Below, in pieces: positions 766-61,933 of a DNA stretch of 64,000 nucleotides; the first letter of the stretch is position 1, and the number at the start of each line of letters is the position of its first letter. The notes beneath the pieces are model-generated. The model saw nothing but the letters and a program-made list of their open reading frames with translations. It was not told the origin of the DNA and did not search any database. The position numbers were made by a program, and so were the translations under genes. This DNA is from an uncultured bacterium (GTDB lineage Bacteria > Oederibacteriota > JAAXVQ01 > JAUVAV01), in the NCBI GenBank assembly GCA_963710755.1, contig CAVQBK010000001.1, positions 32,001 through 96,000 on the forward strand, written 5' to 3'.

Positions 766-1773
766 ATGGCATCTGAGACACTTTTAACACCTGTGGTTAA
801 ATCAACACCCAGACCTTCGGCAAGTCCTGCCTTACCATCTGATCTAAAACCAAGTGCGTTGTCCATTGACGTCACCAATGCCTGTAATCTGAAATGTAAA
901 CATTGCTTTTGGGATTCTTATGAACATGCATCATGTATGAATCCCAACTTGCTTAACCATATAAAGGAAACACTGGACGCCTTTCCTTCAATCACCAATA
1001 TTACCTGGTATGGTGGTGAACCTCTGTTAAATGAGAAAACAGTATCTATTCTTTGGGAAGGAATGAAATTTCATCAAAAGAATAATTTGGTCATTACCAA
1101 TGGCACCAACTTTATCCCTGACTTTGGCGAAAACATTCACGTTGGACTCTCTCTGGATGGGATCAAATCGATAAACGATGATATCCGCGGCCAGGGAGTG
1201 TACGAGAAGGCTAAAGCCAATGCTTTAAACGCGATCAGACGCGGTACACCGATGGCCATTATTTATTGTGTGAATTCAATGAATATCGACTGTATCCCAG
1301 AATTTGTAGAGGAATGGTCCGAAACACCTATTAATGGAGTGATTTTCACTTATTATGCACCTATGAAAAATAAACACTCTGAATTGATAGTCAAAGATAA
1401 ACAAAAATATGTTTTGGTTTCTATGCTGAATGAATTGAAGATGAGATATAAAAAGTTTATTTACAATTCACCATTGATGATTGAAATGTTAAAGCCGAAG
1501 TATAATAAGGTCCTTGCCCAAAATTGCCCCATGAATATTCACAATAAAAATGGACGGTGCCATTCTATACACATGAATCATGACGGCTCGATAAGAAAAC
1601 CCTGTGCGCTGGGACCATATGCAGATTGTTTCCAGTGCAGATCCATAACCAAAATGGCAATATACACCGGCATCTATAAAAGAGACAAAGAATCTTTAGA
1701 TACACTCTTCGAACTCTATCACACTAAGAAACATAAAGCCAGGCATCAGACGCGGATGCAATTATTTAATTAA
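766..1773 (+). CDS. Radical SAM enzyme with C-terminal Cys-rich (twitch/SPASM-like) extension
   Basis: CxxxCxxC motif CNLKCKHC, YGGEPLL, ITNGT, SLDG...NDDIRGQG; C-terminal CPM..CHS..PCALG..CFQC. Confidence 0.92.
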   Translation: MASETLLTPVVKSTPRPSASPALPSDLKPSALSIDVTNACNLKCKHCFWDSYEHASCMNPNLLNHIKETLDAFPSITNITWYGGEPLLNEKTVSILWEGMKFHQKNNLVITNGTNFIPDFGENIHVGLSLDGIKSINDDIRGQGVYEKAKANALNAIRRGTPMAIIYCVNSMNIDCIPEFVEEWSETPINGVIFTYYAPMKNKHSELIVKDKQKYVLVSMLNELKMRYKKFIYNSPLMIEMLKPKYNKVLAQNCPMNIHNKNGRCHSIHMNHDGSIRKPCALGPYADCFQCRSITKMAIYTGIYKRDKESLDTLFELYHTKKHKARHQTRMQLFN

Positions 1774-1831
1774 TTGATAATCCTTTGGGCCGACACTAAA
1801 GATACTAATACTCCGGCCTGAAGGAAATGCA

Positions 1832-3988
1832 ATGGACCAATATGCAATTGCTCAATATACTAATGCTTTGTTTATGTTGGTGGTGGGGTTCTATGTACTG
1901 ATTAAAAACCCTGCAAGCTTGGTAAATCGTATTTTTTTTCTGCATAACATGGCTGTCATGGTATGGAGCTTTTCTTTTGCCAAAATGGCTACTGCCCAAA
2001 GCCCTGCTGCTGGATTAATCTGGTCCAAAATGCTGCATGTGGGGGCTATGTTCATCCCTTCACTTTTATTGCACTTGTTTCTCCTCGTTACCGACAGGGC
2101 CCGTACGGTCAAACCACTAATAATCTCCTGTTATATTATTAGCGCGGTCATGGTCGCCTTGCTGCCAACCAACTTACTTATTGATCATACTATCAATGTT
2201 GTTGGTTTCAAATTCTTTGTGGGACCGACCGGTATTTGGTATCATTTTTTTCCTTTGTTTTTCGCCAGCTGTGTTTCGTACGCTTTTGTTCAGCTAATTA
2301 GTGCTTATAAAAAAGCCGAAGGCCTTAAGAAAAAACAATTGAAATATTTAATTATAGGCGCAGCTTTCGGTTATCTTAGCGGGCCTGGCGGATTTTACCC
2401 CCTTTACAATATTCGCATACCACAATATTCTTTTTATGGCGTAAGTATATTTGTTGGTATAGTTGCCTATGCTGTAGTGAGATATCGCCTATTTGATTCT
2501 GAAAAGATAGTTAAAACTGCAGCACGACATTTAGTGATTTTATCCATCAACACATTGGTGGTGTTCATCACCAGTACCCTTTACTCCAAATTCACTCATG
2601 CTCAAACTGATATCTATTTGATGAGTATTGTCGTGGCGGTTACGACAAGTGTATTTGTACTTGCTTTTAACCGGATGTATTATATGGATCGATGGGCTGA
2701 TAAATTTTTCAATAAGGATCAAACCAAAATTTATCATGCCATCAATAACATCCAGCAGCATATTAAAAGCCTTCATGATCAGAACGCTATCTTCGACCAC
2801 GTATTGAAATCATTGGGGAGCGAATTGGAAAATGTTGACATTTATCTGAAGGAAAGAAAAGAGGGGAATTATCACTCGGTCGTGGCCAACAATTATGAGC
2901 AAGGGCTGGATAAACGGGATGCTCTTATTAGAATTCTTGAAAAAAATGTGACTATTGTAGAAACCGATGAGTTGATCTATTTTGATCAGCAAAGTCATAG
3001 TCAGGATAAATTAGAATTGGTTGCTGGACTTCAAAAACTGAATGTGGCCTTAGCTATTCCAATGGCCATAGACCATAAAATGATAGGAGTACTATTGTTG
3101 GGGCGCCCGAAGAATAGACTGGGTTTCGCCGAAAGGGAAATAATAGAATTGGACAACCTTGCCTTTCAGTTGGCGTTGAGTGTTGAAAATTATCGATTGT
3201 ATGAAAAAATGATCAATGATAACAAAATGGAACTAATCGGCACCATGGCCGCATCTTTTGCCCATGAGATCCGCAATCCCCTGACCGGTGCGGCCACTTA
3301 TTTGGAACTATTGCCGGAAAAACTGGATAAGCCAGAGTTCGTAAAAAAATTCTTAGATGTGGTGCCCCGGGAAATAAAACGGGTCATGCAATTGACCACT
3401 GATCTGCTGAATTTTTCCAAAAGCGGTACCCTTAAAACTGAGCCAGTCAAGCTCAAATCCCTGGTGGAACGGTGTCTTGAATTGTTGAAAGCCCAACTGG
3501 CGGTGAAGCAACTGCGTGTTGACCTGGTGGCCCCCACCGATGGGGATATCGAAGCAGATTCCAACCAACTTTACCAGGTCATTCTTAATGTCATGATCAA
3601 TGCCATACATGCTTCTCATGAAGGCCAAACCATTTCCATAGCCATCCATACCAAGGAGATGCAGGCCATAGTATCCATTGTAGATAAAGGGGAGGGCATC
3701 TCGGCCGACAACTTGCAGAAAATTTTTGAGCCCTTTTTCTCCACCAGAATCTATGGTACTGGACTGGGTTTGGCAACCTGCAAACGAATCGTGGAGGGAC
3801 ATGGCGGCAAAATCAAAGTTCAAAGCGAAAAAAAGAAGGGCAGTACCTTTGAAATTATTCTGCCGCGCCAAGTGTCGCCAGAATTGGAAATCGCGGCCAA
3901 AGCTCAATTTTCTGTGAATTCCTCCGAACCTACTTTTAGCACCGACTCCGAAAAGGCCGGTAATTCATACCATCTGGAGGCCCTATAA
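1832..3988 (+). CDS. Sensor histidine kinase: N-terminal 7TM (HisKA_7TM-like) region, GAF, HisKA, HATPase
   Basis: Multiple TM helices in first ~280 aa; GAF-like LAIPM..IGVLLLG; H-box AHEIRNPL, N-box NVMINA, G boxes DKGEGI / GTGLGL. Confidence 0.93.
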   Translation: MDQYAIAQYTNALFMLVVGFYVLIKNPASLVNRIFFLHNMAVMVWSFSFAKMATAQSPAAGLIWSKMLHVGAMFIPSLLLHLFLLVTDRARTVKPLIISCYIISAVMVALLPTNLLIDHTINVVGFKFFVGPTGIWYHFFPLFFASCVSYAFVQLISAYKKAEGLKKKQLKYLIIGAAFGYLSGPGGFYPLYNIRIPQYSFYGVSIFVGIVAYAVVRYRLFDSEKIVKTAARHLVILSINTLVVFITSTLYSKFTHAQTDIYLMSIVVAVTTSVFVLAFNRMYYMDRWADKFFNKDQTKIYHAINNIQQHIKSLHDQNAIFDHVLKSLGSELENVDIYLKERKEGNYHSVVANNYEQGLDKRDALIRILEKNVTIVETDELIYFDQQSHSQDKLELVAGLQKLNVALAIPMAIDHKMIGVLLLGRPKNRLGFAEREIIELDNLAFQLALSVENYRLYEKMINDNKMELIGTMAASFAHEIRNPLTGAATYLELLPEKLDKPEFVKKFLDVVPREIKRVMQLTTDLLNFSKSGTLKTEPVKLKSLVERCLELLKAQLAVKQLRVDLVAPTDGDIEADSNQLYQVILNVMINAIHASHEGQTISIAIHTKEMQAIVSIVDKGEGISADNLQKIFEPFFSTRIYGTGLGLATCKRIVEGHGGKIKVQSEKKKGSTFEIILPRQVSPELEIAAKAQFSVNSSEPTFSTDSEKAGNSYHLEAL

Positions 3989-5511
3989 TGAAACGCTTTT
4001 GGCTGATGAGCACAATGCTCTTGATGGCGCTTAGCCTGACCGCTTGCCAGGGACAACCTGGTAAAAATATTATGCGCCAGCTACATACTGAGAAATTAGG
4101 CGTCATGAAGGCGGAAAATTTTGAAAGTCTGAATGCCGCGGCGGACAATAAAATTGCCGGGTTTCTGGTTAAAGACAGTAATAAGCAATATGCAGTTATT
4201 AATGGGGAAAAACAAAAAACGTACCAAGAAGTTGCCCTCTTGTTGTTTAGTCCCGCAGGGAAACGGTCCATGTATGGAGCCAGAGTAGGGAAGAAGTGGT
4301 GCATTGTTCTCGATGGCCGTCAAGGTCCGCTATACGATGCAGTGCTGGGGCCGGATTTTAGTCCTGATGGCAAGAAAGCAGTGTACATCGGCGAATCCAA
4401 CAAAAAACAACACCTGCTCGTTAACGGCGTTCCCGGCCCGGGGTACGATCACATTTGGCCGGTCCAGTTCAGCCAAAACAGCGCCACCATGATTTATTTG
4501 GCCAGGAAAGGTCACAAGAAAACCGTGGTCATCAATGGCCGACCTGGACCTTGGGTGGATGAAGTAGGCCCGCCGGTAATGAGCGCAGACGGCCAAACCG
4601 TAGCTTACCGGGCTGAGAAAAATAAAAAATACATGGTGGTCATCAATCATAATCCGGGAAAGGCCTATGCGCTCTTGGGGAACCCTGTGATCAGTGCCGA
4701 TGGCACCAAAGTGGCCTACGCGGTCATTATAGGCGAGCTGGCTGAAGAAGCCGTGGTGGCTAACAATGAGCTGGGGCCGAAATTCATGGGTGCTATTGAA
4801 AAAGACAGCCTGACCTTCAGTCCTGATGGGAAACGAATTGCCTATATTTTAGAGGAAAAACATAAGCAAAAGGTTGTGGTGGACGGCAAGCCCGGTAAGC
4901 CTTTTGACCGTATTGTCACAGGCTCGATTACTTTCAGCCCGGACAGCAAACAGGTGGCTTATGCCGGTGAAAATGATGTGAAAAAAATGAAAACCAAAAA
5001 GGATGTTATGGTGGTGTCAGGGGAAAAGGAAAGCGAACCCTTTGTGGAATCCCAAAAATTGTTTTTCAGCCCCGATAGTAAAAACTTTTATTTTTTGGTT
5101 AAAAATCTGGATGACAAAAACCTGTTATTTAAAAATTGGAAAAAGATTAAAACCAGCGACGCTATTGTTAGGCCCACGTTCAGTCCGGACGGCAAGAAGT
5201 TTGCCTATGTGTCCGGCAAGGCCGGTAAAGGCCTGGTAGTGGTCATTAATGGACGCAAGCATAAGGTTTATGACGACATCTGGCCCATTAATTTCAGCCC
5301 CACCGGGGCCTACCTATATTATGTGGGGACCCGGGATAACAAACGCAGGGTGATTATTAATGGTAATGAAGGCGAGCCTTATGATGATATTATCAATGGC
5401 AACATCAAATTCATTGGGGAAAACCGGATTAGCTACGCTGCATTAAAGAAAAACCAAGATGATCAATTTGACATTGTTTACGTGGAAGAAACCGTGAAAA
5501 TCAACAAATAA
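3988..5511 (+). CDS. Lipoprotein with TolB/PD40-like beta-propeller repeats
   Basis: Lipobox LSLTA-C; about nine FSPDGK-type repeats; TAATG overlap with the kinase stop codon. Confidence 0.8.
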   Translation: MKRFWLMSTMLLMALSLTACQGQPGKNIMRQLHTEKLGVMKAENFESLNAAADNKIAGFLVKDSNKQYAVINGEKQKTYQEVALLLFSPAGKRSMYGARVGKKWCIVLDGRQGPLYDAVLGPDFSPDGKKAVYIGESNKKQHLLVNGVPGPGYDHIWPVQFSQNSATMIYLARKGHKKTVVINGRPGPWVDEVGPPVMSADGQTVAYRAEKNKKYMVVINHNPGKAYALLGNPVISADGTKVAYAVIIGELAEEAVVANNELGPKFMGAIEKDSLTFSPDGKRIAYILEEKHKQKVVVDGKPGKPFDRIVTGSITFSPDSKQVAYAGENDVKKMKTKKDVMVVSGEKESEPFVESQKLFFSPDSKNFYFLVKNLDDKNLLFKNWKKIKTSDAIVRPTFSPDGKKFAYVSGKAGKGLVVVINGRKHKVYDDIWPINFSPTGAYLYYVGTRDNKRRVIINGNEGEPYDDIINGNIKFIGENRISYAALKKNQDDQFDIVYVEETVKINK

Positions 5512-5746: not shown

Positions 5747-5824
5747 GGTGGACGTAGCTCAGTTGGTTAGAGCGCAGGGTTGTGGTCCCTGAGGTCGCGG
5801 GTTCGAGTCCCGTCGTCCACCCCA
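5747..5824 (+). tRNA. tRNA-His (GTG)
   Basis: G-1, acceptor GTGGACG/CGTCCAC, anticodon arm CAGGG-TTGTGGT-CCCTG, GGTTCGA T-loop, encoded CCA. Confidence 0.97.
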
Positions 5825-5961
5825 GGAGCCCTTGAGGCAAGCCTGTTTGCCAATGGGCTGAGGATGGATGGGTTGAAGTCGATTATGCGGATGCAGAAAG
5901 CCCAAAGCCTGTTTCGCCGAATCCATATGACCTTTCTTCCGACCTGCACGATTGATTTAAA

Positions 5962-6037
5962 GCGCCTGTAGCTCAGTGGATAGAGCAACGGCCTCCGGAG
6001 CCGTGTGTCGGACGTTCGATTCGTCTCAGGCGCACCA
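5962..6037 (+). tRNA. tRNA-Arg (CCG)
   Basis: Acceptor GCGCCTG/CAGGCGC, anticodon arm ACGGC-CTCCGGA-GCCGT, encoded CCA. Confidence 0.96.
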
Positions 6038-6040
6038 AGC

Positions 6041-6175
6041 CTCCCGCCTCAGGCGCGAGGCCGAGAAGTTGAGAATCGAAAATTGAGAATCGGAAAAACC
6101 AACTTCGGCTGACGTCTTGTCCTGTTGTTGACGGAATCGATTTTTGTTTTTTTAAAACCCCGCCTCCGGCGGGAT
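6041..6175. repeat. Palindromic spacer elements between tRNA-Arg and tRNA-Lys
   Basis: Two CCCGCCTC(A/C)GGCG units; inverted repeat GCCGAGAAGTTG/CAACTTCGGC enclosing tandem TTGAGAATCG x2. Confidence 0.5.
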
Positions 6176-6203
6176 GGATTTTCCATTTGGGATTATCAAG
6201 CTT

Positions 6204-6279
<76 letters not shown>

Positions 6280-6372
6280 CTTTTCATCGATCCTAGCCAT
6301 GATCCTGTGGCAAGGTGACCCACAAACACCGAATAGTAATAATGAGATCACCAGTATAAAGGGAGGTATAGG

Positions 6373-6455
6373 GCGAGGGTGGTGAAATTGGCAGACACGC
6401 TAGACTTAGGATCTAGTGCTTCGGCATGTGGGTTCGAGTCCCACCCCTCGCACCA
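6373..6455 (+). tRNA. tRNA-Leu (TAG)
   Basis: Acceptor GCGAGGG/CCCTCGC, anticodon arm CTAGA-CTTAGGA-TCTAG, long variable arm TGC-TTCG-GCA, encoded CCA. Confidence 0.96.
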
Positions 6456-31956: not shown

Positions 31957-32047
31957 GAATTCTTTATGGCAGCGCTCGTGACTCCATTTCCTGGCCTTGC
32001 GAGATTGGGTTGAGGGGTCCGCGTCAGAAGATAGAGGAGGTTGGCTT

Positions 32048-36812: not shown

Positions 36813-39800
36813 ATGTTCTTGAAACAGATCTTGAAGGTTAGTGTTGGAATAACGTCCATATTATTCCTTGCTGTCATATGGAGTTGGTCTTTTGGCTGGG
36901 CCGCGGAAACGCCGGCTTCAGGTCCCTTGGCTGAGACGATTACAGTGCCAAAGAACGATCCTGTTGATGTTCAGGGAAATAGCCCCGTTGCCTCCGGCAG
37001 CGGCAATTCTATCGGCGCAACATCGACGGTTGTCAACAGCAGGCTGATGCCACCTACCGGTGTGGAAGCCCGCAGTGGCGGAGACCGGGTTTTGATCGCC
37101 TGGGAGCCGGCCCCACCGGCAGGAAACAACAAACTCAGCTATCAATTATTCCGGGCTGAAAGCCCGTTGAGCGGTTACTGGGATAAGACCTGGCCTGCAC
37201 CGCTCAATCCATCACCACTAAGGGTAGAATATTTTCTGGATATGCCCGGTTTCTCCAGTAGCCCACCGGAAAAGGGAAAAACCTACTACTACAGCCTCAT
37301 CAGTGTGGATGGCCAAGGTAATTCCTCCGCTGCAAGTGCACCGCTTAAAGTCCTTAATATTCCCATGCTTTGTGAACCTGGGGCCGTAGAGGCAACAGCC
37401 GGCAACCAGTCGGTGCATCTCAAATGGCTGCCTTCCTTTTCCGGCGGAGAGTTCGGCTTATGTGGTTATATGATTTTCCGTTCCACGGAAAAAGGCCAAC
37501 TGGGATCACCCTTGTTTACAGAACCGATCAAAACCGAGGACTATACCGACCGCGGGGACAACCAGCAAGGATTGGTCAATGGCAAAACCTATTACTACAC
37601 CTTTTTTTCCGAAGACAATGCGGGCAACCGTTCCCAAGTCCCCGTGGTGGTGAAGGCCACGCCCTTTGCACCGCCAACCTCTCCGCTGCAGATCAATGCC
37701 ACCCCCAAATCGGATGATATGATCACCCTGACTTGGTCACCTTCCACGGCCGGCAGCTATGGGCTCAAAGGCTATCAAATCTATCGTAAAAGTGATAAGG
37801 AAACCGAATTTGGCGCACCCATTAACAAAACCCTGGTGATTGGAACCACCTTTGTGGATTCAGAAGAAAACAGTATTTCCAAACCTATCCTGGGGCGGGA
37901 GTATACCTATGTGGTAAGGGCTGTGGATACCCAGGACCATGAGAGTCCTCCTTCGGAAGGGGCTGTGGCTTCACCGCTTACACCTATTGCCATACCCAAA
38001 CAGGGCATTCTTTCCACCGCTATTCCCGGTCTGCCGCCGGATTCGTCGTTGACCATCTCGGGCCGCAAGAAAATTGATATTGGGTACACGGATATTATCA
38101 GTTTGAGTGAGTCCGAAAATGCTAATCCTGTGCCTTCTTTGGGGTCGGGCCTGACCGATGGATTTAATCTGGAGCAGGAGTTGCAGGTGCGTCTGGAAGG
38201 CAAGGTGGGCAAAAAAATAACGGTGGATGTGGATTATGACGACACCCAGGAAGAGCAGCGCAAAATTTCCATTCAATACGCCGGCGATCCTGATGAAGTG
38301 GTTCAGGAAGCGGCTTTTGGAGATATCAATCTCGATTTGGATAAGACGGAATTTGCAGGCTATAACAAGAACCTCTTCGGTGCCAAAGTCAAGGTGGGCT
38401 ACAATGGCTTTAACCTGACCGCCATCGGCGCCCAAACCAAGGGCATTACAGTGACTGAAAGCTTCCAAGGCAATACCTCGCCCAAGAAGATTGATATTGC
38501 GGATACCAGTTTTGTGGCTTATAAATATTATTATTTGACCAAGGATTGGCCCAACCAGGTTAACCATTACGACTTACCTATTTACGCCTCCAAACAAGCT
38601 TTTTACAGCGATAGCAACCCCAACCAAAAAATTCATGGTATTGTGCCGCAATCAGTGGAAATTTGGGTGCGCGACGGCTTGAATGATACCAATTCGCGGG
38701 CAGCGAGCAACACCACGACCGCCAATATTTTCTTCAACCGGTTTTCTCCGGGTATTGACTACACCGTGGATTACCAGGTTGGCGTGATTAATTTCACCAG
38801 GCCCATCACCCGGACCTGGTCCATTGCGGTAGCTTACCGCTACAGAGACGCCAATGATGTGGAGCATAGCGTGGGCTACGATCCCAATGGACAGATCAAC
38901 CTGGATTACGCTACCTTGCAAGTACCTGTTGATGGTAAGACTTCGGATAGTGCTCATTTGATCCAGGATTACAACACCAATGATCCCAATTTATCGAAAA
39001 ATTACATTATGATGCTGATGCAGCGCTATAACCTGGGGTATCAGAATATCGTTGATCCTCAGAGCGACCGCGAATTTGTCATCAAAATTTACAAAAGCAA
39101 CGGAGAGGAATATCCTTTGCCACTGCCGACAGATACCTTGAATGCAGAGAAAATATACAGTATTGATCCAACTTTTGGCACTATTTCTTTCCGCCATGAT
39201 TATCCCTTCACAGCCAATACCCTGCAGGATCCATCCCTGCGCTACAAATCGGACATTTATAATAATGGTCTGGAAGACGCCTACAGTTCGGTCTACAACA
39301 CCACTTTGGGCGGCAGCAACAACAGTATTGCCAATAATATTTCCATTCATGTTGAATTTAAAAATACCATTTCCACTTTTAATCTCTCCCACTGGAATGT
39401 CATCAAGGATTCAGAGGTGATCCGTAAAGACGGCCTGAAAATGCAGCGTAATACCGATTACTTCATCGATTACGACACCGGGTTCATTACTTTCCTTAAC
39501 CCCGACAGTATTGCCAGCAGCAGTGACATCAGCATCACCTATGAATATCTGCCTTTTGGTGGCAAATACCAGACCAATTTATTCGGCGCACGGGCGGAAT
39601 ACGATATCATCGACAAACGGCTGACCATAGGCTCCACCTTTTTGTACAACGCCAGCCAAACGCCGATGGACATTCCTGATGTAAATTCAGCCCCCACTTC
39701 CTTGGCCATCTATGATGGTGATGTGCAGCTAAATCTGAATCCCAAGGATTTTTCAGATATGCTCAATCCTTTAGTGGGAGAGACTAAAATACCACTTTCG

Positions 39801-42800
39801 CTTAATGTCTCCGCTGAAGGTGCCTACAGCCACTATGAATTGAACACCTACCGTAAATCCGGAGAAGACGGTGTAGCCATGGTGGATAACATGGAGGGGT
39901 CGGACAATATTCTGTCCTTGCCCGTGGGGGCCAATGCCAATAATATCTGGTCCCCCTCCAGCCTGCCTTCCACCGGGAATTATCCCGATCCTATTGACCG
40001 CGATTATATCCGGCAATCGGTGGTATATGAATATGGCCGCACGCCCGTGGATAGCAATGACAAGAAACATCAGCTCCGCTGGGCTTATAATGGTCTTAAC
40101 AGCAACCGCTGGGATGGTTTTGTCTACCCGCTTAACAGTGCGGGCTCTAATTTGCATGAGTACCGCTTCCTGGAAATGGTCATTTATTCATCGGCAGCAG
40201 CAGCCAACACAGTCAAACTCAACGTAGATCTGGGGCTGGTCAGCGAGGATGCCAACAACAACGGCAAACTCAATTTTGAAGGCGACCGCCAGAAAAAACT
40301 CGAAGGCTATGACGTCGGTCCGATTAATACCATCGTGGGTTACGACCCTCTTACCAATCAGCCAATTATTGGCCCTGATCAGACCGCCGGTGTGAGGGGG
40401 GAAGGGATTTATCCGCAGGGCGCGCCCACCGGTTATTGGGGTGACGGCAACGGCCAGTTGGACAATGAGGACATGGACAATAACGATCAGCTGGACACAG
40501 TTGAAAGCTATTATGAATACAGCATTAATCTGCAACCGGGTTGGAATATTTACAAAATCCCGCTAAGCGGCTTTACCACCACCAGTGGTGCGGTCAATAT
40601 CAACCCCCAGGATCAGACGTTTATGAGTTTTGTCAAACATGTGCGCATGTGGATGACAGGTCAGACTTCGGCAGATCAGAGTGGGTACGTGCAGTTTGAA
40701 TCCATCAGCCTGACAGGGAACAAATGGCAGCCCATGGTGGCGCCAGGAGCAGTGGATGCGTTGGGCAATTCCATTAGCGCCGTACCTTCCAATAAAATCA
40801 ATGCCACGGCTATCAGCCTGGAGACGGACAGCCACTATGTGCCTAATACCTTTTTCTACATCATTGATGAATTGCAAAATGAACAACAGCAGTTGCTCAA
40901 CGAAAAATCTCTGAAATTGGAATATGATTTGACCAGTCAGGATGTGACCGATCCTGCGGATAGCCAATGTAACACGCCGGCCTATTACTTTACCCGCACC
41001 TTAACCACGGCCAGTCAGGGGTATGATTACTCCCGATACCGGTATTTGCGGCTTGATATCTATAAGCAAACCCAGACGGCGGCCGGCGAATATGTCTTTG
41101 TGCGTCTGGGTATTGATGACAACAATTATTATGAATACCGCGTGCCATTGGACCAGGTGCAACCCATGAGCGCTTGGCATACGGTGACTCTGGAATTGGA
41201 TGGCCGCGATGGAGAACGGCGGGAAGTGTTCGGGGAGAACATCCTGCGAGGACTCAATAATATCAAAACCATCTCCATGGGAGTGTATAATCCCAATGCC
41301 ACCGCTGCGCTTGAGTCCATTTGGATCAACAATCTGCGCGTTACCGGCGCCCGTTCCAAGCAAGGCATGGCCTATCGCATAAGCACCTCCACTAAATGGG
41401 GCGACGTTTTTACCATTCGTACAGACCATCGCGACGTGGATTCCGACTTCTTCACTATCGATGAAACGCCGGTGGGCAAGCAGCGTCAGGTCAGCGAATT
41501 GGTGGCGGGAACGATGACCAAGTTTAGTTTTATGCCGGTGGATGTGAGCTGGTCCAGAAACGAAAGTTATACGGAGCAGGATAACCGCGATGATTTTTCC
41601 TACTCCAATAATTTTTCCACCCCCGATCTTACCACCGAAACTTTTGCGGGCAACCTCGGCTACAGCCAGATCCCCGGATTGGACATATCCGTTCACACCA
41701 ATCGCAGCCGCAGTGTTCGTGAATATATTGTCCAGCGCACCCAGCCCAACAGCATTGAAGAGACGTCCTCGGTTAATCCCCAGGTTTCTTACTCCTTGCC
41801 GGACCGGCTATTTAATGTGCCTATAGGAACAACCACGATTAGCGGTAAGGTAACCTATACGGACACGCACACCATGTATAATCAGGCGGATGTGGACAGC
41901 CTGGACAACAGCACCACGGCCAGCGATGCTTATTATTCCCGCTGGCAGCACAGTTTGGAAGAGAGCTATACCTATTCCGGCAATTATTCGCCTATCCGGT
42001 TCGTACGCCTCACCCCGCAGTTTACTTATTCACGGACACGTAATCGCGGGTTTCTGTCGCTTTACCGTTATTATTATAGGGATAATTATGATCTGAATTC
42101 GCAGGGCCGCTATTATTCCGATGATTACCGGGATGCCCATTTGAACAAGATTGCCAAATTAAATGTCAACATCAGCAGCATTCCTGTGTTCTCGCCATCC
42201 CTAAGCTATACCATGACCAATGACCGCGATTATATCCAGGACTCGCTGTCCACGCCGGGGACGTTGAGCATCCAGTCGGGTATTAATCTGGGGGATATTC
42301 TGGGATGGAATGCTTTCCCGCAACTTAATTTCACCGAAACCTATTCCCGGTCGGCCACTTTTAAATATGAACAGGATAATCAAACTATCGATCAGCTGGA
42401 TTTTCAGGACATGTGGCTTATCAATTTCGTGAATTTCCAGGACGATAATGAAAAGTTAAACAATGCTTACATCAATTCCAGAAAGAAGACGGATAGCCTG
42501 ACTGCCAACATCAATTTTATCCCCAATGTCACCCTGTCGCCGCAATATTCCACCAGCTGGACTAAAAACATGAATACCAGGGATAACTATATCACCACCG
42601 AGACCGAATCCCTGGGGGGGACGTTCAATTGGACCAAGGTGCCCTCTTTTGACTGGCTGGCCTTTCAAACGCTTAATTTGGACTATCGTTATGATTTGAA
42701 CCAACAGTTGAATGCCAAAAACATTATTTCCACCAAGAACACGACCCACACCACGACTCTGACTATTCCTTTCCGTTTGACCAGTGATTTAGGCGGTACA

Positions 42801-43229
42801 TTAACGGGAAAATTGATCAATGAACGACAAGCTTCAGGAGATGCGTTGAATAAAGAACTGTTGGAAAATGAATATAATGCCGGCATTTCCTTTAATTACA
42901 ATCTCAACATGGTGGACCCTATCCGGCTGCCCAATTTCTGGCCTTTTAACGGCGCGCTGATGAAGTTGGAACAGACCTTGAGACTTACCAACTATTTCAA
43001 TATCAAATTCACCAACAATCAGGAATACTTTAATCATAAACTCTTAGAAACCTCTCTTTACAAAAAGGATATCACGGAGTATTCCAATGACACGACCATT
43101 AATTATTCGCTCTGGCGTAATGTAGAAGGGGACATCAAACTGACGAATCAATGGTACTTTGACAAAGTAGAACCAAGCCATAACTATTATGCCATCAGTC
43201 TTAAAGCAGGCATCACAGCCATTTTTTAA
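36813..43229 (+). CDS. Giant outer-membrane protein: signal peptide, three FN3-like repeats, SprA/Sov-like (T9SS translocon-like) body
   Basis: FN3 patterns (PPTGV..W..Y..YYY..VD..GN.S) x3; SprA-N-like QELQVRLEGKVGKKITVDVDYDD..YAGDPDEVVQEAAFGDI..LFGAK; DYxxDY repeats; long amphipathic beta C-terminus ending in Phe. Confidence 0.78.
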   Translation: MFLKQILKVSVGITSILFLAVIWSWSFGWAAETPASGPLAETITVPKNDPVDVQGNSPVASGSGNSIGATSTVVNSRLMPPTGVEARSGGDRVLIAWEPAPPAGNNKLSYQLFRAESPLSGYWDKTWPAPLNPSPLRVEYFLDMPGFSSSPPEKGKTYYYSLISVDGQGNSSAASAPLKVLNIPMLCEPGAVEATAGNQSVHLKWLPSFSGGEFGLCGYMIFRSTEKGQLGSPLFTEPIKTEDYTDRGDNQQGLVNGKTYYYTFFSEDNAGNRSQVPVVVKATPFAPPTSPLQINATPKSDDMITLTWSPSTAGSYGLKGYQIYRKSDKETEFGAPINKTLVIGTTFVDSEENSISKPILGREYTYVVRAVDTQDHESPPSEGAVASPLTPIAIPKQGILSTAIPGLPPDSSLTISGRKKIDIGYTDIISLSESENANPVPSLGSGLTDGFNLEQELQVRLEGKVGKKITVDVDYDDTQEEQRKISIQYAGDPDEVVQEAAFGDINLDLDKTEFAGYNKNLFGAKVKVGYNGFNLTAIGAQTKGITVTESFQGNTSPKKIDIADTSFVAYKYYYLTKDWPNQVNHYDLPIYASKQAFYSDSNPNQKIHGIVPQSVEIWVRDGLNDTNSRAASNTTTANIFFNRFSPGIDYTVDYQVGVINFTRPITRTWSIAVAYRYRDANDVEHSVGYDPNGQINLDYATLQVPVDGKTSDSAHLIQDYNTNDPNLSKNYIMMLMQRYNLGYQNIVDPQSDREFVIKIYKSNGEEYPLPLPTDTLNAEKIYSIDPTFGTISFRHDYPFTANTLQDPSLRYKSDIYNNGLEDAYSSVYNTTLGGSNNSIANNISIHVEFKNTISTFNLSHWNVIKDSEVIRKDGLKMQRNTDYFIDYDTGFITFLNPDSIASSSDISITYEYLPFGGKYQTNLFGARAEYDIIDKRLTIGSTFLYNASQTPMDIPDVNSAPTSLAIYDGDVQLNLNPKDFSDMLNPLVGETKIPLSLNVSAEGAYSHYELNTYRKSGEDGVAMVDNMEGSDNILSLPVGANANNIWSPSSLPSTGNYPDPIDRDYIRQSVVYEYGRTPVDSNDKKHQLRWAYNGLNSNRWDGFVYPLNSAGSNLHEYRFLEMVIYSSAAAANTVKLNVDLGLVSEDANNNGKLNFEGDRQKKLEGYDVGPINTIVGYDPLTNQPIIGPDQTAGVRGEGIYPQGAPTGYWGDGNGQLDNEDMDNNDQLDTVESYYEYSINLQPGWNIYKIPLSGFTTTSGAVNINPQDQTFMSFVKHVRMWMTGQTSADQSGYVQFESISLTGNKWQPMVAPGAVDALGNSISAVPSNKINATAISLETDSHYVPNTFFYIIDELQNEQQQLLNEKSLKLEYDLTSQDVTDPADSQCNTPAYYFTRTLTTASQGYDYSRYRYLRLDIYKQTQTAAGEYVFVRLGIDDNNYYEYRVPLDQVQPMSAWHTVTLELDGRDGERREVFGENILRGLNNIKTISMGVYNPNATAALESIWINNLRVTGARSKQGMAYRISTSTKWGDVFTIRTDHRDVDSDFFTIDETPVGKQRQVSELVAGTMTKFSFMPVDVSWSRNESYTEQDNRDDFSYSNNFSTPDLTTETFAGNLGYSQIPGLDISVHTNRSRSVREYIVQRTQPNSIEETSSVNPQVSYSLPDRLFNVPIGTTTISGKVTYTDTHTMYNQADVDSLDNSTTASDAYYSRWQHSLEESYTYSGNYSPIRFVRLTPQFTYSRTRNRGFLSLYRYYYRDNYDLNSQGRYYSDDYRDAHLNKIAKLNVNISSIPVFSPSLSYTMTNDRDYIQDSLSTPGTLSIQSGINLGDILGWNAFPQLNFTETYSRSATFKYEQDNQTIDQLDFQDMWLINFVNFQDDNEKLNNAYINSRKKTDSLTANINFIPNVTLSPQYSTSWTKNMNTRDNYITTETESLGGTFNWTKVPSFDWLAFQTLNLDYRYDLNQQLNAKNIISTKNTTHTTTLTIPFRLTSDLGGTLTGKLINERQASGDALNKELLENEYNAGISFNYNLNMVDPIRLPNFWPFNGALMKLEQTLRLTNYFNIKFTNNQEYFNHKLLETSLYKKDITEYSNDTTINYSLWRNVEGDIKLTNQWYFDKVEPSHNYYAISLKAGITAIF

Positions 43230-43751: not shown

Positions 43752-45953
43752 ATGCGCTGGCGGCGAATACCAATGGGGCTGTTATTAGTGGCAATTGGGA
43801 TCTGCTCTTTATCCAAACCGGTCAACGCTGTGGAAAGTTTCAGTCCGGTGACCGAACTTTTGCTCTTCAGCGATGAGATTATGGTCATGTCCGCTACCAA
43901 GCGACTGCAAAAATTGTCCGAAGTTCCCGGATCGGTCACCATTATTACGGAGAAAGAAATCAAACAAAGCGGGGCCTTGACCATCTTTGAAGCTCTGCGT
44001 AATTTGGCTGACATTACTATTATAAATGAGGGGTTGTTCAATACCATTCGCTTTCGTAGTATGCAGGCGGCTTACAATAACAAAATTCTCGTACTTATTG
44101 ACGGCCGGAAAGTCAACACCATGGACTGGGGAAATTTTGACGGCGATCTGGGCATTAACTTGGCCAATGTTAAACAGATTGAGGTTATTAAAGGCCCGGG
44201 ATCATCTCTGTATGGCGCCAACGCCTATGCCGGAGTGATCAGTATTGTCACCAAAGACGGCGCCGAGATCGGCGGGTTGAAAACCGATATAAGCGTGGGC
44301 AACAAACCGGGAGACAGGGAAGTGTCCCAAAAATATAGTTTAACTTATGGTAAGAAAATGGACGATCTGGATTGCAAGATATCCGCCAGCTATTGGCGTG
44401 CATCGGGTATTGATCTTTACGATGGTCCTCATCCCAACGATCTTTTTGACGGTGAAGAAGCCAGTTTTGCGTTGAAATACAAAGATGATTGGATGGTTCA
44501 AGGTGGTTACCATAAATCCAGCTCACCCTGGAACGGCTCGGAATACAATCCTACTCCTAAAAATACGGAGGATTTAGAACAGCTTTATTTGGACGGCACT
44601 TACAGTTTGGCTTTGAATGACCTTTCCAAATTAAAACTACACCTGACCGACAATTACAATTTAAAACGATACATCCATACCGAATTATGGAATCTTGACC
44701 GCCAAAAAATTAACACTATTAATGACTTACCTTCACCAGCACCGATTATGATTGTAACCGATAAAGGAAACACGGAGCCCATCGACAATGCCGTGGGGGG
44801 ATATTACATTGGGCTTAATGACTTTTTACGCGTGATCGACAGCAGTGCCCTGAGTATGGAGGATCTCGGTTTGGGCCGCATGAATGAATTCATGGCGGAT
44901 TTACAGTATGACCTGGCCTGGCCGCAAAACAATTATTTGCTGGCCGGCCTTAGTCTCAAATACGATTGGAGCAATCAGGATTATTTCAAACAGGATGTGG
45001 TGACCGATACAAATTATGCGGTTTACCTGCAGGATGAATATCATCTGGGTGATCAATTAATCCTGCTTAGCGGCATCCGCTATGATTATAACCAAGATTA
45101 TGGCAGCAATACCAGCCCGCGGGAAAGCCTGATCTACGAACCCTTAAAAGGCCTGCGCATGAAAGCTCTCTATGGCAGCGCTTTCCGGGCGCCGGTAATT
45201 CTTGAACGCTACACCCTTACCGATTATGGGTTTTATGAAGCCACGGGTAATTTGGATCTGAAACCGGAAAGCATTCAACAAAGTGAAGCCAGTGTTGAAT
45301 ATGAAAACGGCCAGTGGTTAAAAGCCAAAGCCGGTTACTTTTACTGGGAAACCGCCAATGAAATCCAGTTTGATTACACGATGGGCAGGCTTTTTGTTTA
45401 TAGCCCGGATTTGAGCTTGATCAGCCCGCTCATGCCCGCATTGCCCGGGTTGTTATATGCCGGGGAATTAAATGCCGCGCCTGCCCTGGTAAGCTGGGGT
45501 AATGCCAACAGCCGCATTGGCCACGGGCTGGAACTGGAGACCACCATTACGCCTAATGAGTTTACTCAAATACAATTAAATTACAGCCGCACCACCCTAT
45601 ATGCCCGAAACAGACCTCAGGCTCCGGAATGGGCTGAAGGGGTGGCCGATATTGCCAATGCCATTGTGGGACTGCATTTTAAGGATCTGGTCTTCATGAA
45701 TTTTTATGCTCATGCCGGACGCAGTCCCATGACCGTTAATGTGGATCCCGATGCCGGTCTAGGTCTGGCAGTGGAAGCCCATTGGCTGCAACAGTACGAT
45801 ATCAGTCTGGGGGGACAATATGAGGGGTTTAGCTTAGTGGCTACGGCCTTTAACATCTTTCACAATGCCATAGTTTATGACAGCCGTTATAGCCAATCTT
45901 TGGAAGGGCCAACCATCTATCGGCTGAATGCTTCTTATACCCTGAAATTTTAA
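43752..45953 (+). CDS. TonB-dependent receptor, array copy 1
   Basis: Signal peptide; plug motifs NNKILVLIDG, QIEVIKGPGSSLYGANAYAGVI; NLDLKPE; C-terminal YTLKF. Confidence 0.93.
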   Translation: MRWRRIPMGLLLVAIGICSLSKPVNAVESFSPVTELLLFSDEIMVMSATKRLQKLSEVPGSVTIITEKEIKQSGALTIFEALRNLADITIINEGLFNTIRFRSMQAAYNNKILVLIDGRKVNTMDWGNFDGDLGINLANVKQIEVIKGPGSSLYGANAYAGVISIVTKDGAEIGGLKTDISVGNKPGDREVSQKYSLTYGKKMDDLDCKISASYWRASGIDLYDGPHPNDLFDGEEASFALKYKDDWMVQGGYHKSSSPWNGSEYNPTPKNTEDLEQLYLDGTYSLALNDLSKLKLHLTDNYNLKRYIHTELWNLDRQKINTINDLPSPAPIMIVTDKGNTEPIDNAVGGYYIGLNDFLRVIDSSALSMEDLGLGRMNEFMADLQYDLAWPQNNYLLAGLSLKYDWSNQDYFKQDVVTDTNYAVYLQDEYHLGDQLILLSGIRYDYNQDYGSNTSPRESLIYEPLKGLRMKALYGSAFRAPVILERYTLTDYGFYEATGNLDLKPESIQQSEASVEYENGQWLKAKAGYFYWETANEIQFDYTMGRLFVYSPDLSLISPLMPALPGLLYAGELNAAPALVSWGNANSRIGHGLELETTITPNEFTQIQLNYSRTTLYARNRPQAPEWAEGVADIANAIVGLHFKDLVFMNFYAHAGRSPMTVNVDPDAGLGLAVEAHWLQQYDISLGGQYEGFSLVATAFNIFHNAIVYDSRYSQSLEGPTIYRLNASYTLKF

Positions 45954-46004
45954 AAAGGTCGAGCTGACCAGAGAAGACAGGGATCCCAAGGAGGGGAAAG
46001 GTAA

Positions 46005-48200
46005 ATGAAAAAATATCTCGTTATAGGGCTGATGGTTTTGACGATGACCGCTGTATGCAGGCCGCTTCTTCATGCCATGGACAGCTTTAGTCCGGTAACA
46101 GAGCTCATGCTCTTTAGTGATGAGATTATGGTCATGTCCGCCACCAAGCGCTTACAAAAGCTTTCGGAAGTACCTGGGTCGGTTACAATTATTACTGGAA
46201 AAGAGATCAGGGAAAGCGGGGCCCTGACCATCTTTGAAGCGCTGCGCAATATGACCAATGTGGCCGTCCTCAACGAGGGATTGTTCGATTCACTCCGCTT
46301 TCGGGGCATGCAATCAGCTTCCAATAATAAAATCCTGGTTTTGGTGGATGGCCGAAAAATCAACACTTTGGATGTGGGCAATTATGACGGGAAATACGGA
46401 ACGGATTTAAGCAACGTCAAGCAGATCGAAGTCATTAAAGGACCTGGGTCTTCGTTGTATGGGGCCAATGCTTATGCCGGTGTTATCAATATTGTCACCA
46501 TGGACGGCGTGGATATCGGAGGCGTTAAAACCGATGTCAGTATTGGCAATAAACCGGGCGATTTTGAGCTTTCACAGAAATACAACCTTGCTTATGGCGA
46601 TAAAAAAGGAGATTTGGATTACAAAGTCACTGCCGGTTATTGGCGCGCCCTTGGTGTGGACCTGGTCAATGTGGATCATCCCAATGACTTATTCACCGGG
46701 GCCGATGCCAATTTCAAACTTAAGTTCAAAGATACTTGGATGGTGCAGGGCGGCTATCTCAATGCCACGACTCCTTGGGATGGTTCGACCTTTACGCCGA
46801 CGCCACGTAATCATGAAAAGCAGGACGTGTTTTATTTGGATGGAACCTATAAACTCGAGCTCAATGAGTTATCCAGTCTTAAGCTGCACTTAACGGACAA
46901 TTATTATGTCAACCATATGGTGGAAACAGAAACATGGGATCTTGATAGGCAAAAGATCAACAGTTCGGCAGACCTGCCCGTGCCGACGCCTCAGATAATT
47001 GTCACCGACAAGGGACTGATGGAATCGGTAGACAAGGCCAATGGACAATATTATATCGGCGTCAATGATCTGTTTCGTATTGTCAGCGGCAGTGCCCTGG
47101 AGATGATCGAGTTGGGCAAGGGGCGTCTCAATGGGCTTATGCTCGAGTTGCAATACGACCTCGCCTGGCCGCAGAACAACTACCTTTTGGCCGGACTTAG
47201 TTTTGACTACAATTGGGTTGATCAAAATTATATTTTTGGTGGTCAAGTAACAGATCAAAATTATGCGGTTTACCTGCAGGATGAATATCATCTGGCTGAT
47301 CGATTGATCTTACTTAGTGGACTTCGTTATGATTACAATCAGGATTACGGTAGTGACCTCAGCCCCAGGGAAAGTTTGATCTACGAACCGCTGAAAGGCC
47401 TGCGATTCAAAGCCCTTTACGGCAGTGCCTTTAGAGCTCCGGTTTTCTTGGAACGCTACACCAACACCGATTACGGTTTTTACGAGGCCAATGGCAATCC
47501 TGATCTCAAACCGGAAAGTGTTCAGCAAAGTGAAGCCAGTGTGGAATATGAACTGGGTAAATGGCTTAAGACCAAGGCCGCCTATTTTTACTGGGAAACA
47601 GCCAATGAAATTCAGTTTGCCTACACCTTGGGGTCACTCTATGTCTATTCACCTGATTTGAGCCTGATCAGTCCCCTATTGCCCCCTGTTCCCGGCTTGT
47701 TTTACACGGAGCAGTTGAATATCGCCCCTGCCTTTGTGAGCTGGGATAATTCCAACAGCCGTATAGGCCATGGTGTGGAGCTGGAAACCACAGTGGAACC
47801 CACGCCCTTCACCCGGCTGCAATTAAATTACAGCCGAATTAACCTCTATGCCCGAAAATTATCGGTGGCTCCGGAATGGGCCAGCGGTACCAGCGACATC
47901 GCCAATGCGGTTCTAGGGTTGCATTATCAGGATTTAATATTTCTTAATTTTTACGCCCACACGGCCCGCGTGCCTGTGGCTTATGGCGATAACTTCTTGG
48001 CAATAGAAAACAACAAGATTGAATCCAAATGGGTGCAACAATACGATGTGAGCCTGGGTTGTAACATAGCAGGATTCAGTGTGGTGGCGGCAGCGTTTGA
48101 TATTTTTAACAACCCTATAGACTACAACGAACAAACCGGAGACTACTTGCGAGGCAAACCACTGTATCGCGTGAATGCTTCCTATACATTGTCCTTCTGA
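46005..48200 (+). CDS. TonB-dependent receptor, array copy 2
   Basis: Same plug motifs, GNPDLKPE, C-terminal YTLSF. Confidence 0.93.
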   Translation: MKKYLVIGLMVLTMTAVCRPLLHAMDSFSPVTELMLFSDEIMVMSATKRLQKLSEVPGSVTIITGKEIRESGALTIFEALRNMTNVAVLNEGLFDSLRFRGMQSASNNKILVLVDGRKINTLDVGNYDGKYGTDLSNVKQIEVIKGPGSSLYGANAYAGVINIVTMDGVDIGGVKTDVSIGNKPGDFELSQKYNLAYGDKKGDLDYKVTAGYWRALGVDLVNVDHPNDLFTGADANFKLKFKDTWMVQGGYLNATTPWDGSTFTPTPRNHEKQDVFYLDGTYKLELNELSSLKLHLTDNYYVNHMVETETWDLDRQKINSSADLPVPTPQIIVTDKGLMESVDKANGQYYIGVNDLFRIVSGSALEMIELGKGRLNGLMLELQYDLAWPQNNYLLAGLSFDYNWVDQNYIFGGQVTDQNYAVYLQDEYHLADRLILLSGLRYDYNQDYGSDLSPRESLIYEPLKGLRFKALYGSAFRAPVFLERYTNTDYGFYEANGNPDLKPESVQQSEASVEYELGKWLKTKAAYFYWETANEIQFAYTLGSLYVYSPDLSLISPLLPPVPGLFYTEQLNIAPAFVSWDNSNSRIGHGVELETTVEPTPFTRLQLNYSRINLYARKLSVAPEWASGTSDIANAVLGLHYQDLIFLNFYAHTARVPVAYGDNFLAIENNKIESKWVQQYDVSLGCNIAGFSVVAAAFDIFNNPIDYNEQTGDYLRGKPLYRVNASYTLSF

Positions 48201-48329
48201 TAGGTTTGGAGCGCATTGATTGACGAAGAAAAATATTAGATTCGGCCTTGATCTGATTAAAAAATGGTTAATTTTCCAAATACTACGCCGAAACTTTGGA
48301 CGAAAACAAAGTAAATGAGGGATGGGCTT

Positions 48330-50534: not shown

Positions 50535-50578
50535 GTGTAATAACTACAGCCAATGGGCAACCAAGCTAGGAGGGAAAA

Positions 50579-52790: not shown

Positions 52791-52824
52791 AAAAAATGAG
52801 GTATAACACCATAGGGGGCAGGCA

Positions 52825-55029: not shown

Positions 55030-55066
55030 AAGTATTGTTGAACAATCCCAATGGAGGATGAAAGAA

Positions 55067-61875: not shown

Positions 61876-61933
61876 GTTAAGAAACGTTGTTTTTAAAATT
61901 CAAACGTATTAGTTGTGTGGATTGGGGATTGTA

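Follow-up and report, generated by a model that had tools for sequence, protein, structure and literature searches.

Introduction

A short list of bacterial signalling systems pairs a synthase with a sensor kinase. In CqsA/CqsS and LqsA/LqsS, a single cytoplasmic synthase, in both cases a pyridoxal phosphate-dependent acyl-CoA transferase, adjoins a multi-pass membrane kinase of the hybrid type that senses the hydrophobic product, and the phcB gene adjoins phcS. The comQXP locus of Bacillus and the comCD locus of streptococci contain a hypervariable block of the same pattern as that of the staphylococcal agr locus. In agrBDCA, this block is described in a section of PMC10482373 as spanning agrB, agrD, and the sensor part of agrC, whereas the transmitter part is conserved. 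Two reports describe PhcB/PhcS of Ralstonia as a system in which an S-adenosylmethionine (SAM)-dependent enzyme makes a hydrophobic signal, methyl 3-hydroxymyristate, that is detected by a sensor histidine kinase (PMC8578825, PMC11960443). The PrsK/PrsR system, which belongs to the PEP-CTERM/exosortase context, is linked to N-acyl amino acid synthases according to a passage in PMC7293339 that cites Craig et al. 2011. Here, we describe a gene pair with a comparable layout in a 64,000-nt stretch of DNA from an uncultured bacterium of the phylum Oederibacteriota (positions 32,001–96,000 of contig CAVQBK010000001.1, assembly GCA_963710755.1; hereafter the window). The pair consists of a radical SAM enzyme gene and a gene for a histidine kinase with a seven-transmembrane (7TM) sensor domain, HisKA_7TM, and the enzyme and the sensor part of the kinase appear to be inherited and exchanged as one block in several uncultured bacteria, as would be expected if a signal synthase and its cognate receptor were involved.

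The radical SAM enzyme gene and the 7TM kinase gene

The enzyme gene (766–1773) encodes P0001, a 335-aa protein that matches the radical SAM family PF04055 well above the Pfam threshold (44.8 versus 29.5 bits) and that represents a family here termed rSAM-A. The kinase gene (1832–3988) encodes P0002 (718 aa), in which HisKA_7TM, GAF, HisKA, and HATPase_c domains follow each other; with 54.9 bits against PF16927 (threshold, 28.6), 51.4 bits for HisKA, and 93.5 bits for HATPase_c, P0002 is a HisKA_7TM kinase. Both genes and all of their features given below lie on the + strand, and they are separated by 58 nt (1774–1831) in which no terminator-like site exceeds the shuffle expectation. A first-pass annotation made from the sequence alone had described a stand-alone radical SAM gene with the motif CNLKCKHC and extra C-terminal cysteines, located 58 nt upstream of a co-oriented 7TM-GAF-kinase gene; the open reading frames (ORFs), the Pfam matches, and the alignments agree with this description in full.

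The adjacency of the two genes is conserved beyond the window. At E ≤ 1e-30, rSAM-A was found in 2 of 99 genomes of the phylum, namely the window's own genome (G000) and G026, which represents another genus of the same family; in the latter, a spacer of 52 nt separates the enzyme gene (48% identity) from a downstream gene for a 7TM-GAF kinase (41% identity). A metagenome scan with enzyme-only patterns yielded at least seven additional loci, and in all seven of those listed an ORF similar to P0002 from residue 1 onwards starts −4 to 34 nt past the enzyme stop codon. Pfam identified the full 7TM-GAF-HisKA-HATPase architecture in four of these seven kinases, the other three being cut by a contig end, and PilZ fusions in three of the seven enzymes. 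Among the matches listed, the kinase gene is directly downstream in all eight non-self loci (spacers of −4 to 52 nt), which is the arrangement expected of a quorum-sensing pair, i.e. a synthase gene adjoining a membrane sensor kinase gene across lineages. The first-pass annotation had made its proposal depend on homologues being mostly located beside 7TM kinases, as they are at these loci. Two of the loci (L103 and L104) carry the same allele and L099–L102 are kin with 79–88% identity, so that the eight loci and the window represent approximately five lineages (<70% rSAM identity), and the adjacency is kept at enzyme identities of 44–56%.

The pair is not a fixed component of these genomes. 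G023, a genome of the same genus as the window (92% complete), contains neither the enzyme gene nor the kinase gene, and it retains the PD40-repeat gene that follows the kinase gene in the window. Together with the low G+C content of the pair (0.38–0.42 versus 0.458 for the window), this indicates that the module is variably present and that the PD40 gene lies outside it. Distant radical SAM relatives (L007–L020; 24–32% identity) are not located beside 7TM kinases among the matches listed, but they are uninformative about the tight family, because they were drawn by the generic CNLxCxHC pattern. Similarly uninformative is the absence of rSAM-A at E ≤ 1e-40 from 65 genomes of the phylum of an Omnitrophota metagenome-assembled genome that is the source of the homologue P0033.

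Joint exchange of the enzyme core and the 7TM sensor

An alignment of 11 full-length kinases was compared region by region. The 7TM parts of the rSAM-A-linked kinases share 33–71% identity, whereas their GAF-kinase parts share only 22–36% outside close kin; in comparisons with kinases paired with other enzymes, the identity of these 7TM parts is 17–26%. In a tree of the 7TM domain (FastTree, midpoint-rooted, excluding L165 and L094, which contain stops, and sequences shorter than 150 aa), all six rSAM-A-linked 7TMs form one clade. Over 15 non-independent pairs, enzyme identity follows 7TM identity (Spearman coefficient, 0.60) and not the identity of the cytoplasmic part (0.11).

The clearest example is provided by two of the metagenome loci. 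L101 and L103 share 100% nucleotide identity over L101 positions 600–2399, a stretch that runs from DNA upstream of the enzyme gene through the part encoding PilZ to just past CxxxCxxC. Over positions 2550–3860, which contain the catalytic core of the enzyme, the spacer, and the kinase up to approximately codon 205, the identity falls to ~60%, and beyond position 4010, in the transmitter, it returns to 92–97%. At the amino acid level, L101 and L104 are 68% identical in the enzyme core, 49% in the 7TM part, and 98% in the transmitter.

Two further examples come from a paralogous locus, which in the window lies at the opposite end and, as the first-pass annotation had pointed out, repeats the layout with a different enzyme. 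It contains genes for a sigma-54 response regulator (58553–59920; 433.7 bits versus a cut-off of 502.6 for PEP_resp_reg, with NtrC scoring higher), a single-domain receiver protein (60452–60928; PF00072), the 304-aa protein P0069 (60961–61875), and a class I SAM methyltransferase (61913–62641), followed after 1 nt by a second HisKA_7TM ORF of 367 aa (62643–63746; PF16927, 71.7 bits), all on the + strand. Unlike the rSAM-A loci, this locus thus holds two regulator genes. P0069 has no Pfam or NCBIfam match but is predicted to adopt a GNAT acyltransferase fold: the AlphaFold2 model has a mean confidence (pLDDT) of 74.9, and the top Foldseek matches are all GNATs, with E-values from 2e-5. The second 7TM kinase reads in three frames and extends past the window end (continuation at L097 191–2331). 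The kinase of genome G032 gives tblastn matches to it in frames 2, 3, and 1, the frame changes being located near 63680–63710 and 63950–63960, so that this kinase gene is either disrupted or affected by an assembly error.

The gene order of the paralogous locus is kept in four genomes (G027, G029, G031, and G032), but the gene in the enzyme slot differs: it encodes a methyltransferase in G029 and G032 and a second radical SAM family (rSAM-B) in G027, and in G031 the slot contains a pair of genes for B12-binding radical SAM enzymes, of which one is HpnR-like (L191 6533–9570 block, G031:C1; 233 bits versus a cut-off of 650 for the hopanoid C-3 methylase HpnR). The slot of G026 contains a ThiF-methyltransferase fusion. 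P0069 is 33–43% identical to its counterparts in four relatives, and in these the part past approximately codon 110–145, which contains the catalytic core, falls inside the variable block. G029 and G027, which belong to one genus, share 84–91% nucleotide identity on both flanks but no similarity across L189 8351–10522, a segment that comprises the GNAT-like core, the methyltransferase or rSAM-B gene, and the first ~215 codons of the kinase; the transmitters are 85% and the 7TMs 21% identical in amino acid sequence. Between G031 and G032, where B12-dependent radical SAM enzymes stand against a methyltransferase, the respective values are 71 and 28%.

In every comparison, the downstream breakpoint is located at approximately codon 205–215, at a conserved YAxxRYRLxD motif. 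Synthase-position enzyme and sensor domain co-vary while the transmitter is conserved (L101 versus L103/L104, G029 versus G027, and G031 versus G032), as in the blocks that define pherotypes. The enzyme and the 7TM module are therefore very probably a functionally matched unit.

SAM enzymes upstream of HisKA_7TM kinases in the phylum

Within the 99 phylum genomes, 96 PF16927 matches were identified in 45, and 94 HisKA_7TM kinases were analysed after excluding two at contig ends (G030:C41 and G024:C144). Upstream of 73 of the 94, an ORF of at least 100 aa in the same orientation ends within 400 nt. By Pfam, the upstream genes include those for class I methyltransferases (nine), radical SAM enzymes of three unrelated families (seven), ICMT/PEMT-type enzymes (two), ThiF proteins (three), and other kinases (approximately nine). 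A SAM enzyme is directly upstream of 16 of the 94 kinases (18 if the ICMT/PEMT type is included), and 2.1% of the crude ORFs of G000 (58 of 2738) match PF04055 or PF13649; the resulting binomial P of 1.6e-10 is overstated because related genomes are not independent. None of the 33 ORFs of G000 with a kinase core but no 7TM domain is preceded within 400 nt by such a gene in the same orientation. The association between SAM enzymes and HisKA_7TM kinases is real, and the adjacency exceeds chance.

Kinases that group in the same half of the tree are also preceded by genes for an NAD_binding_4 reductase, a ferredoxin/flavodoxin-like protein, and a HAD hydrolase. Several of the slot enzymes (the ICMT/PEMT type, the HpnR-like B12-dependent radical SAM enzyme, and the NAD_binding_4 reductase) belong to families that usually act on lipids or hydrophobic molecules, which fits a hydrophobic ligand sensed in the membrane.

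Some related arrangements were noted in addition. An open frame of 1056 aa in G000 (G000:C3:126358–127971) has both Methyltransf_25 and Radical_SAM matches and may encode a fused protein. On the − strand of the same genome (G000:C1:248146–252578), two tandem kinase genes (737 and 739 aa) share one base; HisKA_7TM is present in the downstream kinase at least, and no enzyme gene is located directly upstream of the pair. L129 (G057:C121:1250–6226) contains three tandem HisKA_7TM matches in short frames of approximately 250–310 aa, preceded by a ThiF-family gene, and these frames may represent kinase-less sensor modules or a fragmented assembly.

The rSAM-A enzyme and its N-terminal fusions

The CNLKCKHC sequence of P0001 (883–906; residues 40–47, with C40, C44, and C47) is the motif of the radical SAM [4Fe-4S] cluster, and CxxxCxxC is kept in all 22 aligned rSAM-A members. 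A C-terminal twitch-like region (1525–1638) contains C254, C280, C291, and H269, all invariant in the same alignment, whereas C288 varies. SPASM domains are defined by a C-terminal motif of seven cysteines and bind two auxiliary clusters; the twitch domain of the SkfB, BtrN, and MoaA type is a shortened version with one auxiliary cluster. With C254, C280, and C291 as the only invariant C-terminal cysteines, P0001 lacks the seven-Cys SPASM motif, and the three cysteines, H269, and the similarity to SkfB would be compatible with a twitch domain. By analogy to SPASM/twitch relatives, this region is a putative auxiliary-cluster site.

P0001 appears to be soluble, having no hydrophobic segment (Kyte–Doolittle; maximum KD19, 1.16). 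Its AlphaFold2 model has a pLDDT of 84.8, and the nearest solved folds in PDB profile and Foldseek searches are SkfB, anSME, CteB, SuiB, BlsE, and MoaA, with TM scores (TMq) of 0.5–0.6 and 14–21% identity. SkfB is the top match (profile E-value, 4e-16; Foldseek E-value, 7.7e-12; TMq, 0.59), and YydG is found alongside CteB, SuiB, and anSME among the further sequence and fold matches. As judged from sequence and model, P0001 is probably a twitch/SPASM-type radical SAM enzyme. It reaches the NCBIfam cut-off of no named radical SAM equivalog (tungsten-cofactor maturase, NirJ1, PapB, AhbC, anSME, MoaA, and others), the best score being 58 bits where 380 are required, and all 25 families listed remain far under their cut-offs; the weak matches include PapB and further peptide maturases. 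Assignment to a known cofactor or lipid pathway, which the first-pass annotation had regarded as incompatible with its proposal, is therefore not what the curated families indicate.

A search of 5.8 billion proteins identified 66 homologues of P0001 at E ≤ 1e-10 (43–56% identity), and 24 of these carry an N-terminal PilZ domain and three an N-terminal receiver (REC) domain (P0040, P0048, and P0053), which the first-pass annotation had not foreseen. In two further homologues, the N-terminus is extended by a segment that lacks an annotation but can be aligned with the PilZ forms. PilZ occurs twice in one representative, and Pfam confirmed the domain in three metagenome ORFs. PilZ receptors of cyclic di-GMP (c-di-GMP) are characterized by RxxxR and (D/N)xSxxG motifs and functional receivers by an acidic pair, Asp, Thr, and Lys. 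The PilZ parts in the 22-member alignment show both motifs, and all of these receiver residues are present in the three REC-rSAM proteins. Given that approximately 27 of the 66 homologues have one of the two domains, their sequences suggest that the enzyme may be under signal control in relatives of P0001; P0001 itself has neither PilZ nor REC by Pfam and is not a member of the PilZ receptors.

The tight rSAM-A family is small, since a profile search of 1.84 billion representatives, which informs on family size only, returned approximately eight clusters above 330 bits before the scores fell to 242 bits. A protein-atlas search with the enzyme returned only clusters labelled 'radical SAM'. No longer form in which enzyme and kinase are fused was found at E ≤ 1e-20, a negative result of little weight. 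Our literature searches found no description of PilZ-fused or receiver-fused radical SAM enzymes and nothing relevant on radical SAM enzymes in combination with histidine kinases and quorum sensing. Both the rSAM-A family and the exchange of enzyme/7TM cassettes appear to be undescribed so far.

Domain organization of the kinase

The HisKA_7TM sensor module, with transmembrane segments TM1–7, occupies kinase residues 1–212 (1832–2467; PF16927 aligns to residues 12–222), and simple hydropathy analysis gave approximately seven to nine membrane segments in residues 1–280. The motif YAVVRYRLFD (2468–2497; residues 213–222) forms the junction between the variable and conserved parts in the alignment of 11 kinases, in which Y213, Y218, R219, L220, and D222 are invariant or nearly so; in the three pairwise comparisons above, sequence identity resumes right behind it. 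It is followed by two extra hydrophobic segments between the 7TM module and GAF (2516–2668; residues ~229–279, Kyte–Doolittle), the GAF domain itself (2786–3190; residues 319–453, PF13185 and PF13492), the HisKA dimerization/phosphoacceptor domain (3239–3427; PF00512) with the invariant H478 (3263–3265), and the HATPase_c catalytic domain (3557–3871; residues 576–680, PF02518). Thirty columns are invariant among the 11 kinases, mostly in the catalytic core, and none of them is a Cys. P0002 does not qualify as PrsK (TIGR02916), as it scores 142.1 bits against a cut-off of 300 and matches over residues 317–678 only. The literature that we found on HisKA_7TM consists of mentions in domain censuses, in which it is counted among sensor domains and no ligand is given.

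Surroundings of the module

The start of a gene for a PD40-repeat/TmcD-like lipoprotein (3988–5511, + strand; Pfam and NCBIfam) overlaps the kinase stop codon, and the two genes are probably co-transcribed in the window. The lipoprotein was considered as a third member of the module and rejected, since it has no tblastn match in the other eight rSAM-A loci, and in G023 its gene is present in another context. Downstream of it are four tRNA genes (5748–6452; tRNA scan) and tig-clpP-clpX-lon, and genes for T9SS-tail (type IX secretion system) and LolA-like proteins are located upstream of the enzyme gene, so that the earlier impression that no other pathway genes lie nearby holds. Searches around the module detected no riboswitch or other RNA apart from the four tRNAs and no terminator above shuffles. 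A search for sequencing runs listed no RNA run and one DNA run that contained 0.20 of the words.

Response regulator genes were searched for by Pfam on the flanking ORFs of the window and G026 and elsewhere by tblastn with the two window regulators, the targets being the other rSAM-A loci and three flank regions of the window's own genome or G026; none was found. No small ORF that could encode a precursor of a ribosomally synthesized and post-translationally modified peptide (RiPP) is conserved upstream or downstream across the nine rSAM-A loci, and in G026 the gap upstream of the enzyme gene is only ~190 nt. Short ORFs that are alike in L101, L102, and L103 were discarded as precursor candidates, the surrounding DNA there being ~80–100% identical anyway.

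The tRNA stretch at 5748–6452 is 94–100% identical in the same-genus genome. In L099, L101, and L103, translations typical of tRNA genes were noted ~300–700 nt upstream of the PilZ-rSAM gene. Elsewhere in the window, a 2138-aa ORF is located at 36813–43229 on the + strand, and six co-oriented tandem genes at 43752–57271 encode TonB-dependent receptors of 672–739 aa each, with Plug and beta-barrel domains.

Discussion

That the two genes belong together, as the first-pass annotation had proposed, is supported by their adjacency and by the joint variation of enzyme core and 7TM module; its further claim, that the enzyme makes or modifies a diffusible molecule sensed by the 7TM domain, is treated here as conditional. 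In the mechanism that we propose, the cytoplasmic enzyme, with its SAM cluster and three-Cys twitch-like site, would turn a cellular metabolite, itself probably hydrophobic, into a small molecule, which would partition into the membrane for recognition within the TM1–7 bundle of the neighbouring kinase. The signal could then pass through the RYRL(F/L)D junction, the two additional helices, and GAF to set autophosphorylation at H478, and the phosphoryl group would be transferred to a regulator whose gene lies elsewhere. Where the enzyme of relatives carries PilZ or a receiver at its N-terminus, production may be gated by c-di-GMP or phosphorylation; a receiver on the synthase could allow feedback from the adjacent kinase that is entirely post-translational. 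An enzyme-made ligand is favoured because co-variation of such a block with a constant transmitter is the hallmark of agr and because PhcB/PhcS provides a precedent. That the product is the ligand of its own 7TM module is, in our judgement, an evenly balanced proposition; such a product would probably be hydrophobic, and its role as a diffusible quorum signal is a more tentative suggestion.

Several observations weigh against this proposal. The closest solved relatives of P0001 act on peptides or proteins and not on small molecules, and the PilZ and REC fusions are equally compatible with the enzyme being a controlled effector. The module contains no exporter, processing enzyme, or precursor gene, and none of the nine rSAM-A loci examined contains a response regulator gene. 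A second copy of the enzyme gene in G000 (47% identity; G000:C3:1427271–1428236, L005 8242–9249) has no adjacent kinase gene, its neighbours being SIMPL/DUF541, CopZ-zinc-finger/BFD protein, and patatin genes. A SAM enzyme is upstream of only about one-fifth of the HisKA_7TM kinases of the phylum, the co-exchange rests on three pairwise comparisons, two of which concern the paralogous locus and not an rSAM-A locus, and all of the material consists of sequence data from uncultured organisms.

Part of this evidence would be accommodated if the enzyme interacted directly with the kinase, as a protein partner or as its output, and no small-molecule ligand were involved, the co-variation then reflecting a protein interface. 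The enzyme might bind to the 7TM module from the cytoplasmic side and serve as a co-sensor of SAM status or of its Fe–S cluster, or its activity might be set by the kinase. The three REC-rSAM proteins, with their apparently complete phosphoacceptor pockets, look like response regulators with a radical SAM output, and the 24 PilZ fusions, as well as the lack of a separate response regulator, exporter, and precursor gene in the module, fit the same explanation. The window enzyme itself has neither REC nor PilZ, however, and the enzyme slot is occupied by unrelated folds, including class I methyltransferases, the membrane ICMT type, B12-dependent radical SAM enzymes, two other radical SAM families, ThiF, and a reductase, for which a shared docking mode is hard to picture. 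The GNAT-like core within the variable block of the paralogous locus, moreover, looks like part of a biosynthetic pathway. We therefore regard a direct partnership as an unlikely, though serious, explanation. A role as a peptide or protein maturase, acting on the kinase or on a short peptide that has escaped annotation (an agr-like pheromone of the RiPP type), is improbable: the best sequence and fold matches of P0001 are indeed RiPP and protein maturases (SkfB, CteB, SuiB, anSME, and YydG), and PapB is among the weak NCBIfam matches, but these matches span the generic radical SAM core with TM scores of 0.5–0.6, and there is no RiPP recognition element (RRE)-like N-terminal domain, protease, or ABC exporter. 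The short gap in G026 and the lack of a conserved small ORF argue against a peptide target, and the invariant columns of the kinases, mostly catalytic and without Cys, against the kinase as the target.

It is very improbable that the adjacency is only historical, i.e. that functionally unrelated genes were transferred together. The low G+C content and the patchy distribution (2 of 99 phylum genomes, and absence from the same-genus genome) would fit a mobile segment with hitch-hikers, but the adjacency persists at 44–56% enzyme identity in approximately five lineages, the breakpoints interrupt both genes at such positions that the segment moved comprises exactly the catalytic core and the sensor module, and different enzymes show the same behaviour at another locus.

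Returning to an enzyme-made ligand, a broader proposal can be formulated, which we consider possible but rather doubtful: HisKA_7TM kinases and their upstream enzymes would constitute a modular, plug-in family of cell–cell signalling systems in uncultured Gram-negative phyla, each cassette having one private chemical 'language'. Each language would be defined by the tailoring enzyme or enzymes (three radical SAM families, B12-dependent radical SAM enzymes, soluble and membrane methyltransferases, ThiF-like proteins, and the GNAT-like core) together with the TM1–7 receptor module. Recombination at the RYRLLD junction would swap languages onto an unchanged transmitter, and pherotypes would differ in chemistry and not in sequence alone. 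The window pair would then represent the first radical-SAM-made autoinducer with its receptor, and in relatives the gating of synthesis by c-di-GMP (PilZ) or by a kinase (REC) would tie quorum sensing to second-messenger control, acting on the synthase protein directly.

If the proposed ligand relationship is true, radical SAM enzymes and HisKA_7TM kinases join the known synthase/sensor-kinase signalling pairs, HisKA_7TM obtains its first candidate ligand source, and in the PilZ-rSAM and REC-rSAM fusions, c-di-GMP or phosphorylation would directly control a radical SAM enzyme. The natural chimeras mark an exchange point at approximately codon 212, at RYRLLD, which provides a design rule for reporter kinases and for the orthogonality of cassettes. 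Even if the small-molecule explanation fails, the co-exchange of an enzyme core and a membrane sensor needs explaining.

Comparison with known systems

The methyltransferase-7TM-kinase pairs found here resemble PhcB/PhcS in layout; the module of the window differs from it in having a radical SAM enzyme, a HisKA_7TM-GAF sensor, and no regulator gene. The similarity to agr concerns the variable block, which consists of the enzyme core and the membrane sensor and is joined to a constant transmitter. The agr system, however, employs a ribosomal peptide, a membrane protease, and another kinase class, whereas no peptide gene was found here, and unlike agr, the alleles at these loci can differ in the whole enzyme class and not only in sequence. 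With PrsK/PrsR, P0002 shares a multi-pass membrane region followed by GAF and a kinase core, and the paralogous locus shares a sigma-54 regulator and a GNAT-like protein; however, P0002 and the regulator score under the respective cut-offs, the GNAT-like protein has no NCBIfam match, and no exosortase context was seen. To our knowledge, neither CqsA/CqsS nor LqsA/LqsS has a sequence relationship to the window proteins. Like SkfB and other twitch/SPASM maturases, the enzyme combines a CxxxCxxC core with a Cys-bearing C-terminal domain, but it differs from SkfB-type maturases in sequence (17–20% identity; TMq, 0.52–0.59), in having three invariant C-terminal cysteines, and in lacking an RRE and a precursor gene. 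A synthase/sensor-kinase pair with pherotype-like polymorphism is thus a known principle; what is new is the type of enzyme and of receptor, the presence of gating domains, and the fact that entire enzyme classes are swapped.

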